Positions 1,725-37,640 of a stretch of 64,000 bases of DNA are shown one piece after another. Every line of letters begins with the position of its first letter. Position 1 is the stretch's first letter. The stretch covers positions 203,978-267,977 of the forward strand of contig CAYOXC010000001.1 of the NCBI GenBank assembly GCA_964407865.1. Direction: 5' to 3'. Made by a program: the position numbers and the translations under genes. The DNA is from an uncultured Gammaproteobacteria bacterium. GTDB lineage: Bacteria > Patescibacteriota > Patescibacteriia > Magasanikbacterales > GWA2-37-8. The notes beneath the pieces are model-generated. The model saw only the letters and a program-made list of their open reading frames with translations. It did no database searches and was not told the DNA's origin.

Positions 1725-3077
1725 TTAAAGAGATATCTGAATTTCATTGGAATACACGCCACAAGTACCGCCTAAGTACTCACAAACTCTTACAAAATAA
1801 ACACCACTGCCGTCAAAAGCACTTACTGATGCCGTGCTTTGCTTAGGGTCAGTAAAATATAAATAAGTATCGCCTGTTCTCAGCGGGTATGTAGGACCTG
1901 TTTTTTTAGACCAGACCAATTTAAATCCCTGAGATGATTCTCCTGTAGTATTCCATTTAACCATACCTTCACCGAGATAAGAAAGCGAAATATTTGAAAC
2001 ACGCTGATCTGTTACTGCTAGTTGAACTTTTATCTCATTAGAGTAAACTCCGCATTTTCCCCCCAAATACTCACAGACTCTTACATAATAACTGCCACTG
2101 CCAGAAAAAGCTTCAAGCGAAGAATTTTTTTGATCAGGATTTGTATAATAAAGATATTTATCACCTGATCTCGTCGGATATGTCGGATGTGCATTTTTTG
2201 ACCAAACCACTTTATAACCCTGCGAAGAATATCCGTTGATAACCCACGAAATACTTGCACCGCCGGTCGATTTAAGACTAATGGAGTTAACTGCACCCGA
2301 AACAACCGGTGTTTTTACGGTTTCCACTGGTTTCGTTGTCTTTACCGATGTTTCAGTTTTATTATCGGTATTATTTTCCTCATCCGTTATTAATGATTTA
2401 TCCAAATTTAAATTCCACTTAACAAAGGCATCATTATTATCACTAGTGGTTATTTTAGCCACTCGATTTTCAGCGTTTTTATCTTCGGCATTAACTGAAT
2501 AATATTTACTACCTGCCTCGACTAATACTTCTTTTTCATCTGATCCAAGCACCTTGACTTTACTGTCATAAACCTCCACACCTTTCTTGTTTTCCGTATT
2601 GACCGTTTTGTAAGCGGTACCGACTGACTGATAACTAATATTTTCAACCATCACTTCAAATGACCTATTATTTAATTCAGCAACTCGTGTGTAAACCTGG
2701 CCTTTATCGTTTAAAATAACAAAATTTGTAGAATTTAAAGATGATAGCGTAATTCCGCTATTAGCATTTAGTCTAATCGCACTACCATCATCGAGATTTA
2801 AAATAGCTCGACCATCACCGACAACTTCCATTGAATCTCCCTCACTCAACGCTAAACCAATATTCGCTCTTTTCCATTCTCCGTCAGCAGATTTATATTC
2901 AACCGCACCCTCAACCAGGGCGATCTGACCGCCAATTTTATTAACAGTTTCCTCTTGATTTTCTGGTTCTACGACAGTGTCTGGCCGACTAAAAAAATAA
3001 AAGGCTGTTAATACCACTGCTAAAAAAACAAAAAATATTACTCTTCCCCAAATACTTGGGTTAGTATTTTTTTCCAT
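1725..3077 (-). CDS. secreted FecR-domain-like protein with two tandem ~65-aa Cys-containing C-terminal repeats
   Basis: N-terminal TM segment. FecR-like segment (GQIALVEGAVEY...GDSMEVVGDGRAILNLDDGSAIRL). C-terminal duplicated module GYKVVWSK...VRVCEYLGGKCGVYSNEIKVQL and GFKLVWSK...VRVCEYLGGTCGVYSNEIQISL. Confidence 0.6.
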   Translation of the reverse strand: MEKNTNPSIWGRVIFFVFLAVVLTAFYFFSRPDTVVEPENQEETVNKIGGQIALVEGAVEYKSADGEWKRANIGLALSEGDSMEVVGDGRAILNLDDGSAIRLNANSGITLSSLNSTNFVILNDKGQVYTRVAELNNRSFEVMVENISYQSVGTAYKTVNTENKKGVEVYDSKVKVLGSDEKEVLVEAGSKYYSVNAEDKNAENRVAKITTSDNNDAFVKWNLNLDKSLITDEENNTDNKTETSVKTTKPVETVKTPVVSGAVNSISLKSTGGASISWVINGYSSQGYKVVWSKNAHPTYPTRSGDKYLYYTNPDQKNSSLEAFSGSGSYYVRVCEYLGGKCGVYSNEIKVQLAVTDQRVSNISLSYLGEGMVKWNTTGESSQGFKLVWSKKTGPTYPLRTGDTYLYFTDPKQSTASVSAFDGSGVYFVRVCEYLGGTCGVYSNEIQISL

Positions 3078-3213: not shown

Positions 3214-3285
3214 TCCGGGGTAGCGCAGCGGTAGCGCAGTTGGCTGTTAACCAATTGGTCGTGGGTTCGAATCCCACCCCCGGAG
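3214..3285 (+). tRNA. tRNA-Asn (anticodon GTT), no encoded CCA
   Basis: Cloverleaf parsed by hand: acceptor tccgggg/ccccgga, D-stem gcgc/gcgc, anticodon loop ctGTTaa, T-arm gtggg-ttcgaat-cccac, discriminator g. Confidence 0.85.
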
Positions 3286-3297
3286 CGAATGAAAAAA

Positions 3298-3319: not shown

Positions 3320-3330
3320 GAGTGAGCGAC

Positions 3331-3499
3331 GGGGAGCGACCAAACTGCTTTGGTCGCGTGTGGGATGAGAACGCCGGAGCGATGTCGCGCCGACTTTGCT
3401 GGGAGGCGCGACCGCGAGGCGGTGGCTAGACAAAATTTTCGGAAGAAAATTTTAGTCGAAGCCGAATCCCTAATAGCGAAGCGCCCACCCCCGGAGCAT
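3331..3499 (+). repeat. structured repeat element C, copy 1; candidate ncRNA embedded in a tRNA-Asn-like frame
   Basis: A ~110-nt core (3370-3470) matches 37490-37590 at roughly 90% identity. It has a conserved 7-8-bp GC stem (gtcgcgc[c]...[g]gcgcgac) and an aaaatttt/aaaatttt hairpin with a c/tGGAAg loop. A compensatory change occurs between copies (gac..gtc versus ggc..gcc). A 9-bp hairpin precedes the core. The 3' end repeats the tRNA-Asn terminus cccacccccggagc. Confidence 0.5.
3484..3499 (+). repeat. partial direct copy of the tRNA-Asn 3' end (att-like scar), copy 2
   Basis: cccacccccggagc is identical to tRNA-Asn 3275-3288. It is followed by its own terminator hairpin. Confidence 0.6.
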
Positions 3500-3505
3500 A
3501 TTAAA

Positions 3506-3535
3506 AACACCACCCTTGCGGTGGTGTTTTTAATA
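3506..3535 (+). terminator. rho-independent terminator after repeat C copy 1
   Basis: Hairpin aaacaccacccttgcggtggtgttttt. Confidence 0.7.
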
Positions 3536-3589
3536 TATTCTGAGGATGCGGGATGAGAAGTTTATACCCCGAGAGCGAAGCGGAGGGGT

Positions 3590-3606
3590 AAATCCCACCC
3601 CCGGAG
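3590..3606 (+). repeat. partial direct copy of the tRNA-Asn 3' end, copy 3 (with a core-deleted C-like flank at 3545-3589)
   Basis: aatcccacccccggagc. Preceded by gggatgagaa...gcgaagcg, which parallels the flanks of C copy 1. Followed by the hairpin at 3614-3647. Confidence 0.55.
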
Positions 3607-3613
3607 CAAATAA

Positions 3614-31850: not shown

Positions 31851-32159
31851 TTATTCACCTATTGTTTCTTCATTTTTTATTTTTTCTTCAGCTAATTCTA
31901 TCGCTTCTTTAAAGAGCTTGACTGTCGCGTCTCTGTTTAAATCAAGTGTTCCAAAAGCACTTCTTAGTTCAGGACGAGCAATAATAAAAGCCATGATATC
32001 ATTGTCGTTTTCAACAGAAGGAAACTCCTTATGTTTATTAAAATAAACTACGAAATCGTCTGCCAGTACCTTTTGCATGTTATCTATTTTTGATTGTCTT
32101 TTCTCGACTATTTCAGCTGCAATCCGGCCGGCTGATGTTTCTTTATTAAAATCTGACAT
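31851..32159 (-). CDS. hypothetical 102-aa protein between the two tRNA-Pro genes
   Basis: ORF with acceptable coding composition. No recognisable family. Confidence 0.4.
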   Translation of the reverse strand: MSDFNKETSAGRIAAEIVEKRQSKIDNMQKVLADDFVVYFNKHKEFPSVENDNDIMAFIIARPELRSAFGTLDLNRDATVKLFKEAIELAEEKIKNEETIGE

Positions 32160-32258: not shown

Positions 32259-32332
32259 CGGGGTATGGCCTAATTGGCTATGGCGCACGCTTCGGGAGTG
32301 TGAGGTTCCGGGTTCGAGTCCCGGTACCCCGA
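32259..32332 (+). tRNA. tRNA-Pro (anticodon CGG)
   Basis: Acceptor cggggta/taccccg, anticodon loop ttCGGga, T-arm ccggg-ttcgagt-cccgg. Confidence 0.8.
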
Positions 32333-32462
32333 CTAAACGGATGTCAAGTGGCAGATGCGGCGGGATTTTGTCACTTCTGTGTATAAGTCACATCGGCAAA
32401 TCGCATTTCTGCCATCTTAGCTACCGTTTGAAATTAAAAAACACCGTTTTTCGGTGTTTTTT
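32333..32462. repeat. repeat B, copy 1 (structured about 130 bp, ends in a bidirectional terminator hairpin)
   Basis: gtcaagtggcagatgcggcgggattttgtcacttctg...aaaaaacaccgtttttcggtgtttttt. About 75-80% identical to 34912-35042. Confidence 0.75.
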
Positions 32463-32493
32463 GAATTTTGTTAAATACTATTGCTTTTTCAAT

Positions 32494-33258
32494 TTACAGT
32501 CGTCTCTCTAATAATTTTTTTTGATCCTTGGCAAAAACCTCCGGATCAGGATTGTTCCAATTGAATTCATTGAATATCTGCATCGTTTTTTCTAAAGATA
32601 GATTAGCGTATTTATCAACCAATTCATCTACACAATATTGGCTTTTTAATACGATAGGGTTGTATTTACATGTATATGCATTAAATAACTCGCGAAAACC
32701 GTGATCCCAAAAACATAAAGTTCGATTTTTAACACCATGCAATTCAATAATAATTTCGATATTACTATTTCTGTCCAGAGATATATTTTCTATCATTTTC
32801 TTAGTAAATAAATATATCTCCGTAACACTATATAGGGCATTTAATACCGATAGATATTTGTTATCAATGGTTTTATCTTTCAATTTTGAAAAAACATAAG
32901 AATTAGCCAACTCTTCTTTTTTTTCCTCGGTCATTCGATAATCCTCGAGCATTGAAAAAAAATGAATAAATTGTCCATCTTGATAGTATTGCCAATATTC
33001 TAAATGCCCCATGTCCGGCCAATTTTCAAGCGACATAACGCTCGAATGAGGCGCCGCTTCAATACCACTTTCACGATTGATGTGCGGATAATCCCAACCT
33101 CTTAGTCTTATATTACTTTTAGTAATAACCTCCTTTAACTCCGGAGTCGTTTTAATTCTTATATCTACACGCTCTACTGGCCGAACGATAATTTTCCAAT
33201 ACCCTTTCTTTTTTATTGTTTCTAATAAATTAATAGACATATATTTAACTAATTTCAT
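32494..33258 (-). CDS. hypothetical protein (cassette 1, gene 3), translationally coupled to the AlbA_2-like gene
   Basis: 254 aa. TAATG stop/start overlap with the upstream gene. No recognisable domain. Confidence 0.55.
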   Translation of the reverse strand: MKLVKYMSINLLETIKKKGYWKIIVRPVERVDIRIKTTPELKEVITKSNIRLRGWDYPHINRESGIEAAPHSSVMSLENWPDMGHLEYWQYYQDGQFIHFFSMLEDYRMTEEKKEELANSYVFSKLKDKTIDNKYLSVLNALYSVTEIYLFTKKMIENISLDRNSNIEIIIELHGVKNRTLCFWDHGFRELFNAYTCKYNPIVLKSQYCVDELVDKYANLSLEKTMQIFNEFNWNNPDPEVFAKDQKKLLERRL

Positions 33259-33980
33259 TATAACAGGCCATCTCTCTTTAGCTCTTTCTCATATTCCTCT
33301 TTAAAGCGAATAGAACTAATTTTTTGAACTGCCTTTTTACTTCGTTTTCCCTGTATTAATCTAGAGCATATAAGATGTAAATCGCTGTTTACTATTTCTT
33401 CTCTGTAACCCAGTAGCCTCGTAACTAGCGCTTTCCACTCTTCGGGTTTTTCAACAGATTTAGACTCGACAGGGTTATTTGCGCGTATATAAACTGACCC
33501 ATGTTTCAAATAATAGGTTTCACGTCGATTCTCTATTATTATTTTATAGTCTTTCTTACATATAACCGGTTCTGAACTATTTGCCTCCAAAATTTGTAAA
33601 ACAATAAATTTCTTTTCCTCGCCCTGCAACTCAACGTTGCCACCGTATAACTTTAATTTGACCGTATCATACAGATATCCATTAATGAATCTGCTAATAT
33701 TATCGATATTATTAAATGAATTGAAATCTTCAACAGTTAAGCCAATTCGTTCAAACTCTTCTGCCTGGCCTTCTCCTCTACCAGGTTGCTTAATTCCTAT
33801 ATAAATATTTCCACCATTAACTGTATTAGCAAAAGCTGTAACAGCTTTAATAACTTCTCCCTTTATACATCTTGAACCTTCGTCTCTGGCACTCCAATTA
33901 AACGGCGGCTTAAATTCAATATTCAAATCTTCACTTCCATATTCAATTGTATTAATCATGTTATCAGTTAACGTCTCCAT
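33258..33980 (-). CDS. AlbA_2 / Schlafen-like putative DNA-binding domain protein (cassette 1, gene 2)
   Basis: N-terminal E..LEFK...AFANT.GG.IYIGI pattern characteristic of the AlbA_2 (Schlafen-like) domain. Confidence 0.55.
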   Translation of the reverse strand: METLTDNMINTIEYGSEDLNIEFKPPFNWSARDEGSRCIKGEVIKAVTAFANTVNGGNIYIGIKQPGRGEGQAEEFERIGLTVEDFNSFNNIDNISRFINGYLYDTVKLKLYGGNVELQGEEKKFIVLQILEANSSEPVICKKDYKIIIENRRETYYLKHGSVYIRANNPVESKSVEKPEEWKALVTRLLGYREEIVNSDLHLICSRLIQGKRSKKAVQKISSIRFKEEYEKELKRDGLL

Positions 33981-34023
33981 ATAAAATGCATTCTTACTTA
34001 ATCAAACATCAATAAAAACTCCT

Positions 34024-34689
34024 TTATAAAATATTACTTTTCCCCAAATTGCATTTTGAACATAATGTCTGTAGATTTTCCAACACAGTTTCACCGTTTC
34101 CGCTCCACGGTTCAATATGGTCAATGTGAAGAACCACACTCTGATCCGTTGCAGGACTTCGACCACATTTTTTGCATGCAAAATTGTCTCTTTTTAAAAC
34201 CTGGTAACGCAAACGCAAAGAAATATCCCGAGGAGTCTTCTTGATCTTTGTAATAGTAGTTTTTTTCTTTAATTTAGATATATCTAGTCCACCGACGTAT
34301 TTGATAAATTCTTTCACCGCCGCGGACCATGAGCCGAATCTTTTTTTATAAGCGCTGGCCTTAATCATCGAAATAGATGAATCCATATCGCCTTGTCTGG
34401 GTTGCTCACCCTTTTTCTGCCAAACCATTAATAGATTGTTAAACAAATCTTCATTTGAATGGCGGCTAATCTTGGCTACACCTAATCCGGCCTGCGCCAA
34501 GGCTGCGTTCCAGGTTCTAAATCGACGTTTTATGCTAGTGGAGCTATATTTGCCGTTTTTATTATAAATCTCCTGGGACAAAGAATCGACTTTTAGTTTT
34601 TTAGCAACCACTTGCAAATCCTTAATTAAGTCTGATGATTTTACAGGTTGATTTGGTGGTGGTATATAAATTATACTATCTGACGACAT
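34024..34689 (-). CDS. HNH endonuclease with two N-terminal homing-endonuclease-associated repeats (cassette 1, gene 1)
   Basis: C-terminal HNH motif CKKCGRS...HIDHIEPWSGNGETVLENLQTLCSKCN. Two KRRFRTWNAALAQAGL / KKRFGSWSAAVKEF repeats. Confidence 0.75.
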   Translation of the reverse strand: MSSDSIIYIPPPNQPVKSSDLIKDLQVVAKKLKVDSLSQEIYNKNGKYSSTSIKRRFRTWNAALAQAGLGVAKISRHSNEDLFNNLLMVWQKKGEQPRQGDMDSSISMIKASAYKKRFGSWSAAVKEFIKYVGGLDISKLKKKTTITKIKKTPRDISLRLRYQVLKRDNFACKKCGRSPATDQSVVLHIDHIEPWSGNGETVLENLQTLCSKCNLGKSNIL

Positions 34690-34706
34690 ATATTTGATGT
34701 TTTGAG

Positions 34707-34911
34707 TATTATGCCACCCGGTCCTAAGAGCGTCAATTACAGCGGTGGTAAGATTCCGGTAGCTGACAATCTGAGATAAACCTCCCGAACACTGTCCAAG
34801 AAATTGAATACGTTAAACAACCCATCTTCGGTGAACAAAGTGGCACCACCTTTTTTGCCCAACATTAGCGGATCTGGTTTTTTCGGTTCGAGAAATACGT
34901 AATCAGGTCGA
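34707..34911. repeat. repeat A, copy 1 (about 200 bp). Carries a minus-strand promoter and ends in a degraded tRNA-Pro 3'-like segment
   Basis: About 95% identical to 37204-37409. The 3' end ggttcgag...gactaaa parallels the tRNA-Pro T-loop to 3' end. Confidence 0.8.
34708..34736 (-). promoter_or_regulatory. sigma70-type promoter (TTGACG, 17-bp spacer, CATAAT) driving cassette 1
   Basis: Minus strand reads ttgacg-ctcttaggaccgggtgg-cataat. The ATG of the HNH gene lies 18 nt downstream of the -10 element. Confidence 0.65.
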
Positions 34912-35042
34912 CTAAAAGGGTGTCAAGTGGCAGAAGCGGCGGGATTTTGTCACTTCTGGGGATAAGTCATATTGAAAAATAAGCATTTCCGCCGTCTAAG
35001 ATACTGTTTGAAATAAAAAACACCGTTTTATGGTGTTTTTTG
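34912..35042. repeat. repeat B, copy 2 (terminator-bearing)
   Basis: gtcaagtggcagaagcggcgggattttgtcacttctg...aaaaaacaccgttttatggtgtttttt. Confidence 0.75.
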
Positions 35043-35975
35043 GTTATTTATAGCTTTTCTTACCTCATCAATTGTTAAAGGTGGATATTTCAAGTGAATT
35101 ACTCTATGACAATTTGAACAAATCAACAAAATATCTTCAACTGAAGTAGTTTCTCCTTCTTTCATAGACGCAACCGGCTTAATATGGTGTCCCTCTATAT
35201 AATTTTGAGCCAATGAACCATATCTGTCCCTAAATGAAAAACCACATATTTCACACCGCAATTCTCCACTTTTTCGCAAAGCAATACTCTTTGCTTCTTT
35301 AACTATCTTTGCATTTCGTTCCCTGGTGTAATGCTTGATTAACTTTCGTTTTCCTTCTTCAACTTGACCGATGGATGTTCTGAAATCAGTGTCACTTGTT
35401 AAGAGATTGCTGTTAGCCAGATACTGATCATAAAATGCTACAACCTTTTTCAAATCATCAACCAACTCTTCATTATCCGGCATATTTGCCAAGCGATATT
35501 CCTTGTAATAAATAATTGGTTCTTCATAATCGGAACCCAGTCCTTTATCCGCAATTTTTGCTTTATCATCGGACTTGAAGCCTGCTAATTGATAATTTGC
35601 TCTAATATTTATTGCCTTAGCCTTTAATTTACTAAATGCGAGTTTTCTACCGTCGTTTTTGATAGGTTTGGTGATTCCTTGCCCAAGACATAAATACAAT
35701 CTCTTGAAATCTGTTGAGTATAGATAAACAACGTAAACACCTTCTTGTGCTCCGTCTGTTTCATTCTTGTTAAAAATACCTATCCAAGGAACTGAGGTCC
35801 AATTACCCATACCAGCAGAACCTTTTATCGTAAAATCTTCTTCCCTTATTATTGGAGAAATAATTTTTTTACTTTCTTCTCTAATAAATTTAGCTAGGGG
35901 GTGATTTGTAAATGGCTCGTTTGATGCAATTGGATATTTTGACCCAATTTCGCTCAATAACTCTCTAAGAGTCAT
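35028..35975 (-). CDS. McrB-N-like (DUF3578) domain fused to an HNH endonuclease; putative type IV (modification-dependent) restriction nuclease (cassette 2, gene 3)
   Basis: N-terminal FTIKGSAGMGNWTSVPWIGIF...GVYVVYLYS (DUF3578 / McrB N-terminal-like). C-terminal HNH motif CEICGFSF...GHHIKPV...CSNCHRVIH. Confidence 0.7.
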   Translation of the reverse strand: MTLRELLSEIGSKYPIASNEPFTNHPLAKFIREESKKIISPIIREEDFTIKGSAGMGNWTSVPWIGIFNKNETDGAQEGVYVVYLYSTDFKRLYLCLGQGITKPIKNDGRKLAFSKLKAKAINIRANYQLAGFKSDDKAKIADKGLGSDYEEPIIYYKEYRLANMPDNEELVDDLKKVVAFYDQYLANSNLLTSDTDFRTSIGQVEEGKRKLIKHYTRERNAKIVKEAKSIALRKSGELRCEICGFSFRDRYGSLAQNYIEGHHIKPVASMKEGETTSVEDILLICSNCHRVIHLKYPPLTIDEVRKAINNQKTP

Positions 35976-36017
35976 ATAAAATATATTTAATAATTTCTTT
36001 TTTTACGCTTTTGTTCA

Positions 36018-36788
36018 CTAATGAGTAGTTGCCTTACACCAATAACACTTTATTTGATGATCTCTTTTTTTCAGATTTTTTAGCCACACCTCATCATGTG
36101 TAGAATCAATCATTAAGTGTTCAATCAACATTTCAATTCTCTCAAGTAATTCTTTTCCAAGAACTGGGCCTTTTTTTAATAAATCTTCATAGTCCCAGCG
36201 ACTTGATAATAGGTGGTGAATAAGATGGTTACGATACTGATAAAATATTAACATCTTCTCAACCAAATTATAGGGTTTCCATATTTTATTACTCGTACAT
36301 TTTGATAGAATATCACTCATAGTTCCAAGAGTTAATCCACATGTATCAACTAAAAAATACGCATTAAAAAGAACATCATCTATTTTTTTAATTTTTGCGG
36401 ATTTTTTTTTATGTTCATAGAACTTATTACGCAAATATGCGTTCGCCTTTCTGATATTCAATTCCCCATCCTTTGTCCATTTTTGATAGCGACAAATATG
36501 GTTCAATATTTTGTCCCTTGATTGTTTTGCATCTAATTTGCCAGTCTCATACAAAGCTTGTAAAAGCGCACAGACTTCATGCTCAAGTAAAATATTGACA
36601 TTAAATAATTGATATTCAAGCCAATATGTAGTCATCTGTTTATCCGCTTTTGTTTTATCTAGGCTCTTTTCTAAACTACCGAAACTTTGTTCCTCTTTAA
36701 TTCTATTCGCCCAATAAAATCGATCAAAACCAGTAATAAATTTTTTATCACTATGCCTTCTTCCTTTAATTTTTTTATTTTTTGGCAT
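36018..36788 (-). CDS. hypothetical protein with a HEPN-like Rx4H motif (Abi-like) (cassette 2, gene 2)
   Basis: 256 aa. A YRNHLIHH segment fits the HEPN R-x(4-6)-H motif. No other recognisable similarity. Confidence 0.45.
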   Translation of the reverse strand: MPKNKKIKGRRHSDKKFITGFDRFYWANRIKEEQSFGSLEKSLDKTKADKQMTTYWLEYQLFNVNILLEHEVCALLQALYETGKLDAKQSRDKILNHICRYQKWTKDGELNIRKANAYLRNKFYEHKKKSAKIKKIDDVLFNAYFLVDTCGLTLGTMSDILSKCTSNKIWKPYNLVEKMLIFYQYRNHLIHHLLSSRWDYEDLLKKGPVLGKELLERIEMLIEHLMIDSTHDEVWLKNLKKRDHQIKCYWCKATTH

Positions 36789-36798
36789 AGAAATACTG

Positions 36799-37173
36799 CT
36801 ACTTATTCAAAATAAATCGTTTAAGTTTCTCTAGCACTCCCAATTCGCTATCTTTGATGTCCTTATGGCGTTTTCGAGCTGCTACAGCTAAAGCATCGGC
36901 GATTTTATCGAGATATTTATCGACTATAATATTAGGGATATGAATCGTGTCGTAATCGTCACGAGTAATTGACCAATAACTTCTATCAAAGTCAGAAATA
37001 ATTTGTTCTGGATCAGTATAATGGTGAATACCATCAACTTCTATATCAATTCTGGCCCAAGGAATAGTTAGGTCTATATGTTTATCTTCATCCCACTTTT
37101 CAAGTTCACAGTATATTTTCCTCTGCCTCAGGGCATTGAAAAGACTCTGGGCCTGCGGGGTCGGATTTGGCAT
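36799..37173 (-). CDS. DUF559 / Vsr-like PD-(D/E)xK endonuclease-domain protein (cassette 2, gene 1)
   Basis: ORF trimmed to the start MPNPTPQ, downstream of promoter A2. IDIEVDG...D motif pattern typical of DUF559 restriction-endonuclease-like domains. Confidence 0.5.
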   Translation of the reverse strand: MPNPTPQAQSLFNALRQRKIYCELEKWDEDKHIDLTIPWARIDIEVDGIHHYTDPEQIISDFDRSYWSITRDDYDTIHIPNIIVDKYLDKIADALAVAARKRHKDIKDSELGVLEKLKRFILNK

Positions 37174-37203
37174 ATTGCTTAAATATTTTGGATTTAATGT
37201 CTT

Positions 37204-37409
37204 TATTATGCCACCCAGACAAATGAGCGTCAATTACAGCGGTGGTAAGATTCCGGCAGCTGATAATCTGAGATAAACCTCCCGAACACTATCTAAGAAA
37301 TTGAATACGTTAAATAACCCATCTTCGGTGAACAAAGTGGTACCCTCTTTTTTGCCCAAGATTAGCGGATCTGGTTTTTTCGGTTCGAGAAATACGTAAT
37401 TAGGTCGAC
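37204..37409. repeat. repeat A, copy 2
   Basis: About 95% identical to 34707-34911. Confidence 0.8.
37205..37233 (-). promoter_or_regulatory. sigma70-type promoter (TTGACG, 17-bp spacer, CATAAT) driving cassette 2
   Basis: Minus strand reads ttgacg-ctcatttgtctgggtgg-cataat. Confidence 0.65.
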
Positions 37410-37446
37410 AATTTAAGAATCGCCGAAAGGCGATTTTTAAATTGGA

Positions 37447-37603
37447 GGGGTATGGCCGAATGAAACTATTCATTCGGCCAAGGGACTCGAACGCCGGAGC
37501 CATGTCGCGCGAGTTTGCTGACGAGCGCGACGGCGAGGCGGTGGCTAGGCAAAATTTTTGGAAGAAAATTTTAGCCGAAGCCGAGTCCTCCCGGTACCCC
37601 GAC
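37447..37603 (+). repeat. structured repeat element C, copy 2, embedded in a tRNA-Pro-like frame (5' ggggtatggcc, 3' tcccggtaccccgac)
   Basis: 5' and 3' ends match tRNA-Pro(CGG). The interior is replaced by a 9-bp hairpin plus the ~110-nt C core shared with 3370-3470. Confidence 0.5.
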
Positions 37604-37606
37604 AAA

Positions 37607-37640
37607 AATAATACCGCCATTTTGTGGCGGTATTATTTTT
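37607..37640. terminator. bidirectional hairpin terminator
   Basis: aataataccgcc-attttgt-ggcggtattatt, flanked by an A-run and a T-run. Confidence 0.7.

Follow-up and report, generated by a model that had tools for sequence, protein, structure and literature searches.

The window analysed here, a stretch of 64,000 nucleotides (nt) of contig CAYOXC010000001.1, contains at positions 37447-37603 an element, C2, of which the two ends resemble those of the tRNA-Pro(CGG) gene located upstream, and of which the interior is occupied by a hairpin and a conserved core. C2 is a tRNA-Pro(CGG)-matched member of a family of elements, designated C, that is encountered in Patescibacteria (Candidate Phyla Radiation, CPR), and its sequence reads GGGGTATGGCCGAATGAAACTATTCATTCGGCC AA GGGACTCG AAC ... 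GAAGC CGAGTCCTCCCGGTACCCCGAC. The 5' end (37447-37461, GGGGTATGGCCGAAT) is identical to the start of tRNA-Pro(CGG) (32260-32274, GGGGTATGGCCTAAT) at 14 of 15 positions, 11 of which are contiguous. The 3' end (37582-37603, CGAGTCC-TCC-CGGTACCCCGAC) corresponds to C56-C74 of the same tRNA with a tandem duplication of the 3 nt TCC, which is atypical for the family, and the 15 nt TCCCGGTACCCCGAC are shared exactly between the two (E=0.007 within the window). These two matches are collinear and occur in the correct order, an arrangement that chance would not produce. An earlier note on this DNA had described both ends in these terms, including an insertion of 2-3 nt in the 3' part, and its description of the ends is borne out; of its account of the interior, the presence of the C core was confirmed, whereas the hairpin comprises 11 bp and not the 9 bp that had been proposed.

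The predicted RNA fold of C2 has a free energy of -84.3 kcal/mol (z=-7.9), and none of 200 shuffled sequences folded equally well. The parts of this fold are listed in Table 1. The P2 hairpin of C2 is of a variant type (CGAATGAA....TTCATTCG) that is otherwise found only in L138 and L186, both of them copies linked to a tRNA-Pro(CGG) (L-numbers are the labels of retrieved genome and metagenome loci). The core contains the blocks GAACGCCGGAGC, GCGAGGCGGUGGCUAG, GGAAG and GAAGCC that are invariant in the family, and it is 88.7% identical over 97 nt to positions 3369-3465 of the window, which belong to a second copy, C1; identity of C2 to loci of other genomes amounts to 72-88%. The covariance model of the family matches C2 at 37454-37589 with 130.4 bits (E about 1e-33, model positions 1-134), a match that holds by construction because C2 is one of the 21 seed sequences of the model. 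ARAGORN and Rfam both found seven normal tRNAs in the window, C2 not being among them, and C2 was called as a tRNA by neither ARAGORN nor the Rfam tRNA model (down to E<=10). In comparison to a tRNA, the anticodon arm is absent and the T loop is replaced by a junction of 92 nt.

Table 1. Coordinates of the C elements, the cassettes and the associated features in the window (ORF, open reading frame; aa, amino acids).
Feature	Position	Strand	Description
C1	3330..3497	+	tRNA-Asn-matched family member; 137 bits; 48 nt after tRNA-Asn (3214-3286)
Core-less 'mini' derivative after C1	3550..3607	+	P3 5' strand GGGATGAGAAG, short hairpin containing AGCGAAGCG, tRNA-Asn tail AAUCCCACCCCCGGAGC, own terminator
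Cognate tRNA-Pro(CGG)	32259..32333	+	called by ARAGORN and Rfam
Cassette 1	32334..34912		B1, three minus-strand ORFs (254 aa; Schlafen AlbA_2, 240 aa; HNH, 221 aa) and A1
B1	32334-32462		about 100-nt structured stretch and bidirectional terminator
Schlafen AlbA_2 ORF	33258-33980	-	cassette 1
HNH ORF	34024-34689	-	cassette 1
A1	34707-34912		ends in ..GGTCGAC; 93% identical to A2
Cassette 2	34913..37409		B2, three minus-strand ORFs (MrcB_N + HNH, 315 aa; 256 aa; about 124-144 aa) and A2
B2	34913-35041		about 100-nt structured stretch and bidirectional terminator
MrcB_N + HNH ORF	35028-35975	-	cassette 2
A2	37204-37409		93% identical to A1
Hairpin and T-run AAUCGCCGAAAGGCGAUUUUU	37418..37438	+	5' of C2; counterpart of the terminator between tRNA and C elsewhere; recognised by eye and homology
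C2	37447-37603	+	157 bases; tRNA-Pro(CGG)-like ends enclosing hairpin and C core
5' acceptor-like strand of C2	37447..37453	+	GGGGUAU; equals tRNA-Pro(CGG) positions 2-8; pairs with 37594-37600 (minimum free energy helix)
P2 hairpin of C2	37454..37479	+	11 bp (37454-37464 with 37469-37479), 4-nt loop, D-arm position; variant CGAAUGAAnnnnUUCAUUCG
P3 5' strand of C2	37482..37489	+	GGGACUCG; complement of tRNA T-loop/T-stem positions 56-63
Three-way-junction core of C2	37490..37581	+	J3/4 GAAC; P4 37492-37540; P5 37543-37582 with GGAA tetraloop; conserved in alignments
3' tail of C2	37582..37603	+	T-loop 3' half, T-stem 3' strand, acceptor 3' strand, discriminator A and C74; TCC duplication
Bidirectional intrinsic terminator	37604..37640	+	3' of C2; shared with the convergent GPI gene

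The extent of the family was determined by scanning a pattern derived from the two most conserved blocks against species-representative genomes and a metagenome collection, and this use of exact core patterns for discovery biases the set toward intact copies. Among the matches listed for the species-representative genomes there are at least about 21 true C homologs, in carriers labelled Magasanikbacteria, Kuenenbacteria, Kerfeldbacteria, Minisyncoccia or 'Patescibacteria group', and four carriers are third-party annotation metagenome-assembled genomes (MAGs) that bear 'Gammaproteobacteria' as a database label only. Most of the at least 119 listed genome-scan matches, in Streptomyces and others, were discarded as chance fits to the GC-rich pattern, and the confinement of C to Patescibacteria is a statement about the matches listed that is not claimed strictly. 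The metagenome collection yielded 78 C loci, which carry no taxonomy, and the nearest relatives of the window DNA are Magasanikbacteria MAGs. In viral contigs no true C match was found, all nine pattern hits being chance GC-rich fits without support from the covariance model. Finally, covariance model R1, of which the E-values are approximate, gave at least 103 hits, 90 of them distinct, mostly scoring 105-149 bits and mostly intact.

The alignments of these sequences support a conserved secondary structure. RNAalifold analysis of 22 sequences detected compensatory changes in 29 of 43 pairs, and the R1 alignment contains 94% paired cells as compared to 33-42% in slid controls, a fraction that is somewhat inflated since this alignment was fitted to the model; the helices were reproduced in an independent MAFFT alignment. 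Moreover, the 90 distinct sequences displayed double-sided changes in 38 of 41 pairs overall, including all 8 model pairs of P2. The typical family RNA is about 135-175 nt long and has the shape of a tRNA without anticodon arm, with an acceptor-like stem in most copies, P2 at the place of the D arm, a T-stem-like P3, and a three-way junction (P4, and P5 with a GNRA loop) replacing the T loop. A conserved U.G pair (65 U.G and 22 U-A), an invariant GGAA tetraloop, and the alternation of P3 between Watson-Crick and tandem G.A pairs show that the functional strand is that of the tRNA, and they speak for RNA rather than duplex DNA. Rfam 15 contains no family over C, neither in the window (at E<=10) nor at 12 other loci (thresholds E<=10 or E<=1), and a description of the family was not found in the literature searched; by these two sources, C is an undescribed structured RNA family. 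Two motif-based ideas, a hammerhead-like CUGAnGAG in C2 and a GGAA hairpin resembling that of the signal recognition particle RNA, were rejected because the motifs are not conserved in the alignment.

Members of the family are linked to tRNA genes. A tRNA is located on the same strand within 200 nt upstream in 68 of the 94 hits that have at least 150 nt of upstream sequence, covering about 29 anticodons, with a usual gap of 0-55 nt, and most of the remaining hits are orphans or are preceded by what is left of a degenerate or deleted tRNA. One copy is located directly after a transfer-messenger RNA (tmRNA) gene (L183 1736-2339, minus strand; RF00023, 107.7 bits); a direct repeat of 58 nt in this locus spans the tmRNA 3' end, the terminator and the strand that follows. 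The 19-nt tail equals the 3' end of the cognate tRNA at 19/19 positions in 32 of 58 non-redundant copies and at 17/19 or more in 44 of them, as compared to 0.4% of the comparisons reaching at least 17/19 for non-cognate control tRNAs. The start of the repeat is fixed at C56 in nearly all loci, and its end is C74 or a few A-rich nucleotides beyond. The tRNA genes of the window and of most retrieved loci have no encoded CCA, yet position 74 is almost invariably a C, after which the sequence is A-rich, and this C74 recurs in the tails of the C elements.

Besides the tail, the strands with which it pairs are tRNA-matched. In copies with a spacer of at least 15 nt, the duplex between 5' flank and tail is more stable for cognate than for non-cognate combinations (-10.95 vs -6.69 kcal/mol, p=1.8e-9, n=43), and compensatory examples were seen in the helix of 5' strand and tail. 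A test of this helix in fixed register was negative and a duplex test with 21 sequences was weak, while the analysis in free register of 81 sequences was positive for spacers of at least 15 nt. A spacer of 0-30 nt without T-run is present in 38 of 58 copies and a terminator-like hairpin within a spacer of 30-50 nt in 20 of 58, while copies in L083, L089 and L111 are sandwiched between two tRNAs. The sole plus-strand promoter detected near C1 is that of tRNA-Asn. Taken together, the short T-run-free spacers, the copies between tRNAs and the tRNA-Asn promoter make co-transcription with the tRNA likely.

Comparison of orthologous C loci, of which the spacers are homologous with 65-80% identity, revealed that the elements change together with their tRNAs. 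For example, the 3' ends of the tRNA-Lys(CTT) genes in L156, L073 and L149 and of the tRNA-Lys(TTT) genes in L136 and L142 differ at 2-3 positions, and the tails follow exactly. In the tRNA-Asp pair L179 and L157, the L157 tail has a 2-nt deletion and the acceptor strand tracks its own tRNA (GGTCCGC vs GACCCGC), and in the tRNA-Pro(TGG) pair L043 and L155, the tail of L043 deviates from its own tRNA at two T-loop/T-stem positions, but the diagnostic acceptor position is mirrored. The compensating changes are carried by the P3 5' strand and the 5' strand, and P3 covaries with the cognate T-stem. An active process, either selection or recombination, keeps the tails identical to their tRNAs. Identity between paralogs of one genome was 66-82% in four out of five genomes and 96% in the remaining one, and these old paralogs together with the orthologous loci across diverged genomes point to long-lived loci rather than a recent burst. 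Clustering of the ORFs in about 6 kb around at least about 100 copies linked no recombinase, transposase, reverse transcriptase or Cas/TnpB-like gene to the family; the recurrent neighbours are syntenic housekeeping genes, including RecA, FtsK, EF-Ts, RF2 and ABC-F.

Downstream of the elements in L032 (5440-5560), L073 (3570-3620), L134 and L168, a segment of 33-70 nt consisting of tail, terminator, 5' strand and half of P2 is repeated, with breaks near the P2 loop. Either a site-specific nick or a template switch at the hairpin and direct repeat may account for this recurrent breakpoint. An HUH nick site at the P2 loop was considered and rejected, since it concerns 4-5 loci only and template switching at repeat and hairpin explains them equally.

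The second copy of the window, C1, has a tail that represents the tRNA-Asn 3' end as CGAAUCCC, a 14-nt insert and CCACCCCCGGAGC. Three Magasanikbacteria genomes (including L121 and L219) carry orthologs of C1 at a shared tRNA-Asn/FecR locus, and their FecR proteins are only about 50% identical. The hairpin AGCGAAGCG(C) of the core-less unit downstream of C1 recurs as an insert within the tail of C1 (3471-3484) and at two places in L076. The tRNA-Asn genes of two of these genomes are themselves altered. In L219 (2249-2573 within 2210-2880, minus strand), from a Magasanikbacteria MAG, about 600 nt are inserted into the anticodon loop and split the gene. The inserted DNA harbours an HNH-like ORF as well as a group I intron (RF00028, 56.8 bits), and it is for this reason that ARAGORN misses the tRNA. 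In L121 (7330-7350, minus strand), from a LacPavin Magasanikiibacteriota MAG, the tRNA-Asn is deleted from position 19 to about 70 with CGG/AGCG microhomology, leaving promoter, first 18 nt and trailer, which may be a real deletion or an assembly collapse.

C2 differs from most copies in its position, since its cognate tRNA ends 5.1 kb upstream and the usual placement at 0-55 nt does not apply. The 5.1 kb between them consists of two tandem homologous cassettes of about 2.5 kb, and it is because these are located at the tRNA-Pro(CGG) 3' end that C2 is at this distance; the displacement is either secondary or an orphan state as in other orphans. The cassettes were delimited by their junctions, which read ..CCCCGAC|TAAACGG between tRNA and B1, ..GGTCGAC|TAAAAGG between A1 and B2, and ..GGTCGAC|AATTTAAG after A2 (A-end junction ..GGTCGAC|AATTT), the right ends of the cassettes being ...GGTTCGAGAAATACGTAATTAGGTCGAC. 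These sequences indicate that the cassettes were inserted exactly after C74 of tRNA-Pro(CGG), and each cassette ends in its own degenerate tRNA-Pro 3' part (CGGTTCGAG...GGTCGAC). That C2 is located at the distal end of this repeat-bounded region had been stated in the earlier note and is correct.

The cargo of the cassettes looks like defence-type genes. The HNH protein of 221 aa carries homing-endonuclease-associated repeats and the MrcB_N + HNH protein is type IV restriction-like, while the other three cassette ORFs have no family match; no integrase was found among the ORFs of the island. B1 and B2 share 85-88% identity, the 3' half having diverged; they fold far more stably than shuffled sequences (z=-5.6), and they have no Rfam match and no homolog in the retrieved loci. 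The A repeats contain a truncated minus-strand ORF of 58 codons (..YVFLEPKKPDPL..LRLSAAGILPPL*) that breaks off at GTCGAC; the promoter of the cassette genes (TTGACG-17-CATAAT) comes next and is located in A2 at 37233-37205 on the minus strand. The A repeat folds no better than shuffled sequences (z=+0.8) and has no Pfam match, and Rfam 15 with gathering and E-value thresholds returned nothing for C, A or B. Immediately upstream of C2, the hairpin with T-run went unflagged in a consensus terminator scan of the region, and a promoter scan of the region detected no plus-strand promoter for C2. A Logan contig, L129, breaks inside the A repeat adjoining C2. Furthermore, a minus-strand ORF of 102 aa without Pfam family (31851-32159) is located between tRNA-Pro(GGG) and tRNA-Pro(CGG); as the two tRNA genes are only 59 nt apart in L208 and 18 nt in L032, this stretch appears to be another small tRNA 3'-end insertion.

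Relatives at the tRNA-Pro locus include empty and intermediate sites. In L208, of which GPI is 79% identical at the amino acid level, T2SSE, tRNA-Pro(GGG), tRNA-Pro(CGG), a 75-nt terminator and GPI succeed one another where the window has 5.3 kb, and both cassettes and C are absent. Comparison with such an empty site had been suggested in the earlier note, and in L208 the entire 5.3 kb including C2 is missing without a third tRNA-Pro being present, so that the observation named there as a refutation, an intact third tRNA-Pro in relatives that have no island, is not what L208 shows. In L213 (GPI 79% identical), an A-type cassette end (2414-2646) and the AATCGCCGAnAGGCGATTTTT hairpin that the window has just upstream of C2 adjoin GPI, and there is no C element. 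L032 has tRNA-Pro(GGG), tRNA-Pro(CGG), terminator and C in direct succession, and L181 likewise has tRNA-Pro(CGG), terminator and C, so that the order of terminator, 5' strand and C found after A2 in the window is the layout found directly after tRNA-Pro(CGG) in these loci. Because L213 has the cassette junction without C2 and L208 is empty, C2 is an indel independent of the cassettes and not the attachment (att) site of the island. Judged from the sequences, insertion of C2 before the cassettes and insertion of the cassettes before C2 would both be compatible with L208 and L213. Additional tRNA-derived units were observed in two loci. The 1656-nt contig L186 contains a tRNA-Pro(CGG) nearly identical to that of the window together with extra tRNA fragments, namely a 5' half that breaks off within the anticodon loop and a 3' half whose variable region carries a 34-nt hairpin, which suggests older integrase-type events at tRNA-Pro(CGG). 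In L140 (1840-2000), a degenerate tRNA-like unit is located between tRNA-Ser and C.

With regard to function, the interpretation that is favoured with modest confidence is that C elements encode small RNAs (sRNAs) that mimic tRNA ends, are expressed from the promoter of the tRNA, are trimmed by tRNA maturation, and combine an active junction with a tRNA-matched acceptor/T-stem end. The C RNA would arise by co-transcription or terminator read-through, most likely from the tRNA promoter given that no promoter of its own is present, and it would be excised and finished by the enzymes of tRNA end maturation (RNase P, RNase Z or exonucleases, CCA addition). The mature RNA might then be read by factors acting on the end of that tRNA, or compete for them, and a conserved partner might be bound by the invariant junction. 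As the tail and its pairing strands change in parallel with the tRNA, its role probably depends on presenting the acceptor/T-stem end of that particular tRNA.

Several known RNAs share part of this design. The tRNA-like domain of tmRNA, bacterial YrlA (Y RNA-like) and the viral and mascRNA structures resemble C in having ends that imitate the tRNA acceptor and T arm, in employing tRNA-processing enzymes, and in having part of the tRNA body swapped for another domain. However, each of these families has one fixed tRNA-like sequence, whereas C occurs in several copies per genome that are each matched to a different adjacent tRNA, and tmRNA and YrlA retain a real T loop where C has a three-way junction. 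The Rfam models of tmRNA, YrlA and other tRNA-like RNAs gave no match over C in the window region and 12 loci. The sRNAs derived from the 3' external transcribed spacer (3'ETS) of tRNAs, such as 3'ETS-leuZ of Escherichia coli, reside in the tRNA trailer, use the tRNA promoter and are released by tRNA processing, and they are short, weakly structured and species-specific sponges. Both these sRNAs and C are encoded in trailers, but C has a core of 135 nt that is conserved across several candidate Patescibacteria lineages and a duplicated tRNA 3' end.

Various observations weigh against the interpretation of C as a tRNA-end-mimicking RNA. The distribution of C is patchy, L208 and L213 being the closest relatives at the tRNA-Pro locus and lacking it; orphan copies without nearby tRNA exist; partial, tandem or core-less copies occur; and the element with its 19-nt direct repeat is a clean indel relative to L208, all of which also fit a mobile or integrative element. 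Moreover, 13 copies with a spacer below 15 nt have no 5' strand, and C2 itself, with no visible promoter and a 3-nt duplication in its tail, may be decaying or transcriptionally orphaned. Mimicry alone leaves the full T-stem identity with the neighbouring tRNA unexplained, and transcription, RNA ends, processing, CCA addition and molecular function of the C RNAs are all inferred from DNA.

The main and serious rival, which is regarded as possible and yet improbable, is a miniature non-autonomous integrative or mobile element. A unit made up of spacer or terminator, 5' strand, P2 and core would have integrated at tRNA and tmRNA genes, with the 19-bp C56-C74 repeat as its att core or a target-site duplication, and the fold, as RNA or single-stranded DNA, would be recognised by a trans-encoded recombinase; C2 and the two cassettes would then be successive insertions at tRNA-Pro(CGG). 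The 3' ends of tRNA and tmRNA genes are classic integration targets, and integrative elements of the T-loop sublocation class at these genes are flanked by attL/attR direct repeats, while casposon-type elements generate long target-site duplications at tRNA 3' ends. C resembles such elements in the repeat of 17-25 bp of the tRNA 3' end that starts from the T loop at a C56 fixed in nearly all loci, in the use of tmRNA as a target (L183), in its insertion arrays, and in the empty site of a relative, given that C2 and cassettes together are a clean indel relative to L208 and that C is missing in L208 and L213. Serial units that each end in a tRNA 3' copy (window 3330-3607; L071, L140, L186), repeats that reach 58-70 nt in L032, L073 and L183 with second units truncated near the P2 loop, and the degenerate tRNA-Pro 3' part that the cassettes bear at the same junction point in the same direction. 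However, the insert is only about 150-200 bp with a strand-specific RNA-like fold, the at least about 100 copies have housekeeping neighbours and no integrase, transposase or reverse transcriptase nearby, none is present in viral contigs, most within-genome paralogs are old (66-82% identity), and nearly all copies are intact. Assessed as a miniature mobile element, including one like a miniature inverted-repeat transposable element, C is missing at the orthologous site in L208 and L213 and one pair of paralogs is 96% identical, yet C is stable at the tRNA-Asn locus in three genomes. Orthologs persist vertically across genera at some loci, with tails and internal 5' strands that complement the repeat and track the tRNA, unlike a passive repeat, and the G.U pairs, GNRA loop, tandem G.A pairs and copies within tRNA operons indicate RNA. 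A model of pure target-site duplication was rejected, since it cannot create the 5' strand and the P3 5' strand, which are tRNA-specific and co-evolve.

The remaining alternatives are considered less probable still. Guide RNAs with a 5' scaffold and a 3' guide include the TnpB omega RNA and the Cas12 CRISPR RNA, and the type V-K CRISPR-associated transposon homes to tRNA genes. By analogy, the C core could be the scaffold and the 19-nt tail a guide equal to the tRNA sense strand after the universal G53-T54-T55 (a GTT-type protospacer-adjacent or target-adjacent motif), sending an unlinked RNA-guided protein to tRNA gene 3' ends, e.g., for homing of the cassettes. This is unlikely, even though the conserved scaffold with a roughly 19-nt variable 3' segment starting at C56 and matching a tRNA gene beside GTT, the GAAGC instead of GGTT that precedes the element's own copy, the need for the tail to remain identical to the tRNA, the intactness of orphan copies, and the adjoining cargo, with cassettes at C74, the distal end of the matched segment, would all suit it. 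The presumed guide is base-paired internally, with tail positions 56-63 in P3 with covariation and 66-72 paired with the 5' strand in most copies, hairpins or short insertions interrupt the tails of C1, C2, L032 and L039, copies are scattered behind housekeeping tRNAs, CRISPR-like repeats were not found, and none of the copies is linked to an effector gene, be it TnpB, Cas12, IscB, IS110 or another. A strand swap, in which the tail closes the acceptor and T stems of the tRNA in a tRNA-C co-transcript and the C domain is placed at the elbow, would offer the only simple RNA-level reason for every tail position to equal the tRNA 3' end, as the need for the swap would keep the two identical; co-transcription is the rule, and both pairing schemes give the same base pairs by construction. 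It is nevertheless very unlikely, as orphans and C2, at 5 kb from its tRNA, are still intact, most copies have their own 5' strand, local folding of the tRNA should win kinetically, and terminators separate tRNA and C at 20 of 58 loci. The least credible alternative is that of the earlier note, in which C2 is a degenerate attR-side tRNA-Pro copy from integration of the island, its interior overwritten in a single event by a mobile C core. The tRNA-Pro-like ends, the island-distal position and the empty site of L208 are in its favour, but tRNA ends and C core together define at least about 100 copies with about 29 anticodons that are normally free of islands, no integrase is present among the island ORFs, the island junctions are at the A-ends, and the P2 variant marks C2 as the ortholog of the tRNA-adjacent L138 and L186. 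The other option of that note, that C2 is part of the cassette unit, is not supported either, since the cassettes have their own right ends and the L213 junction occurs without C2.

The interpretation as tRNA-end-mimicking RNAs can be extended, in a speculative form that is thought rather unlikely, to 'shadow tRNAs', a parallel set without anticodon behind many tRNA genes and the tmRNA gene, with acceptor and T stems kept matched by selection and the junction replacing the T loop, which would be matured, CCA-tailed and perhaps charged or bound. Each such RNA could act as a decoy, sensor or carrier specific to its tRNA, e.g., in defence against toxins or enzymes attacking tRNA 3' ends, or in the monitoring of charging. 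In a more radical variant, the tRNA-matched tail would programme an unlinked protein to tRNA-gene 3' ends and thereby create an insertion hot-spot for defence cassettes.

For the analysis of these genomes, the C elements will mislead the annotation of tRNA pseudogenes and att sites, and they break short-read assemblies, as exemplified by Logan contig L129 that ends in the adjacent A repeat. The island in the window has been clarified as two homologous 2.5-kb cassettes that differ in their defence-type cargo and are placed precisely at C74 of tRNA-Pro(CGG). If the favoured interpretation is true, the Candidate Phyla Radiation, of which the non-coding RNA repertoire is almost unexplored, would contain in C a large family of structured RNAs, governed by the unusual rule that a conserved core is fused to the exact and co-evolving 3' end of the neighbouring tRNA in several copies per genome. 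C would thereby provide a handle on tRNA end maturation in CPR bacteria, whose tRNA genes have no CCA, as well as on tRNA-specific mimics and on tRNA 3' ends as hot-spots for small elements and defence cassettes.

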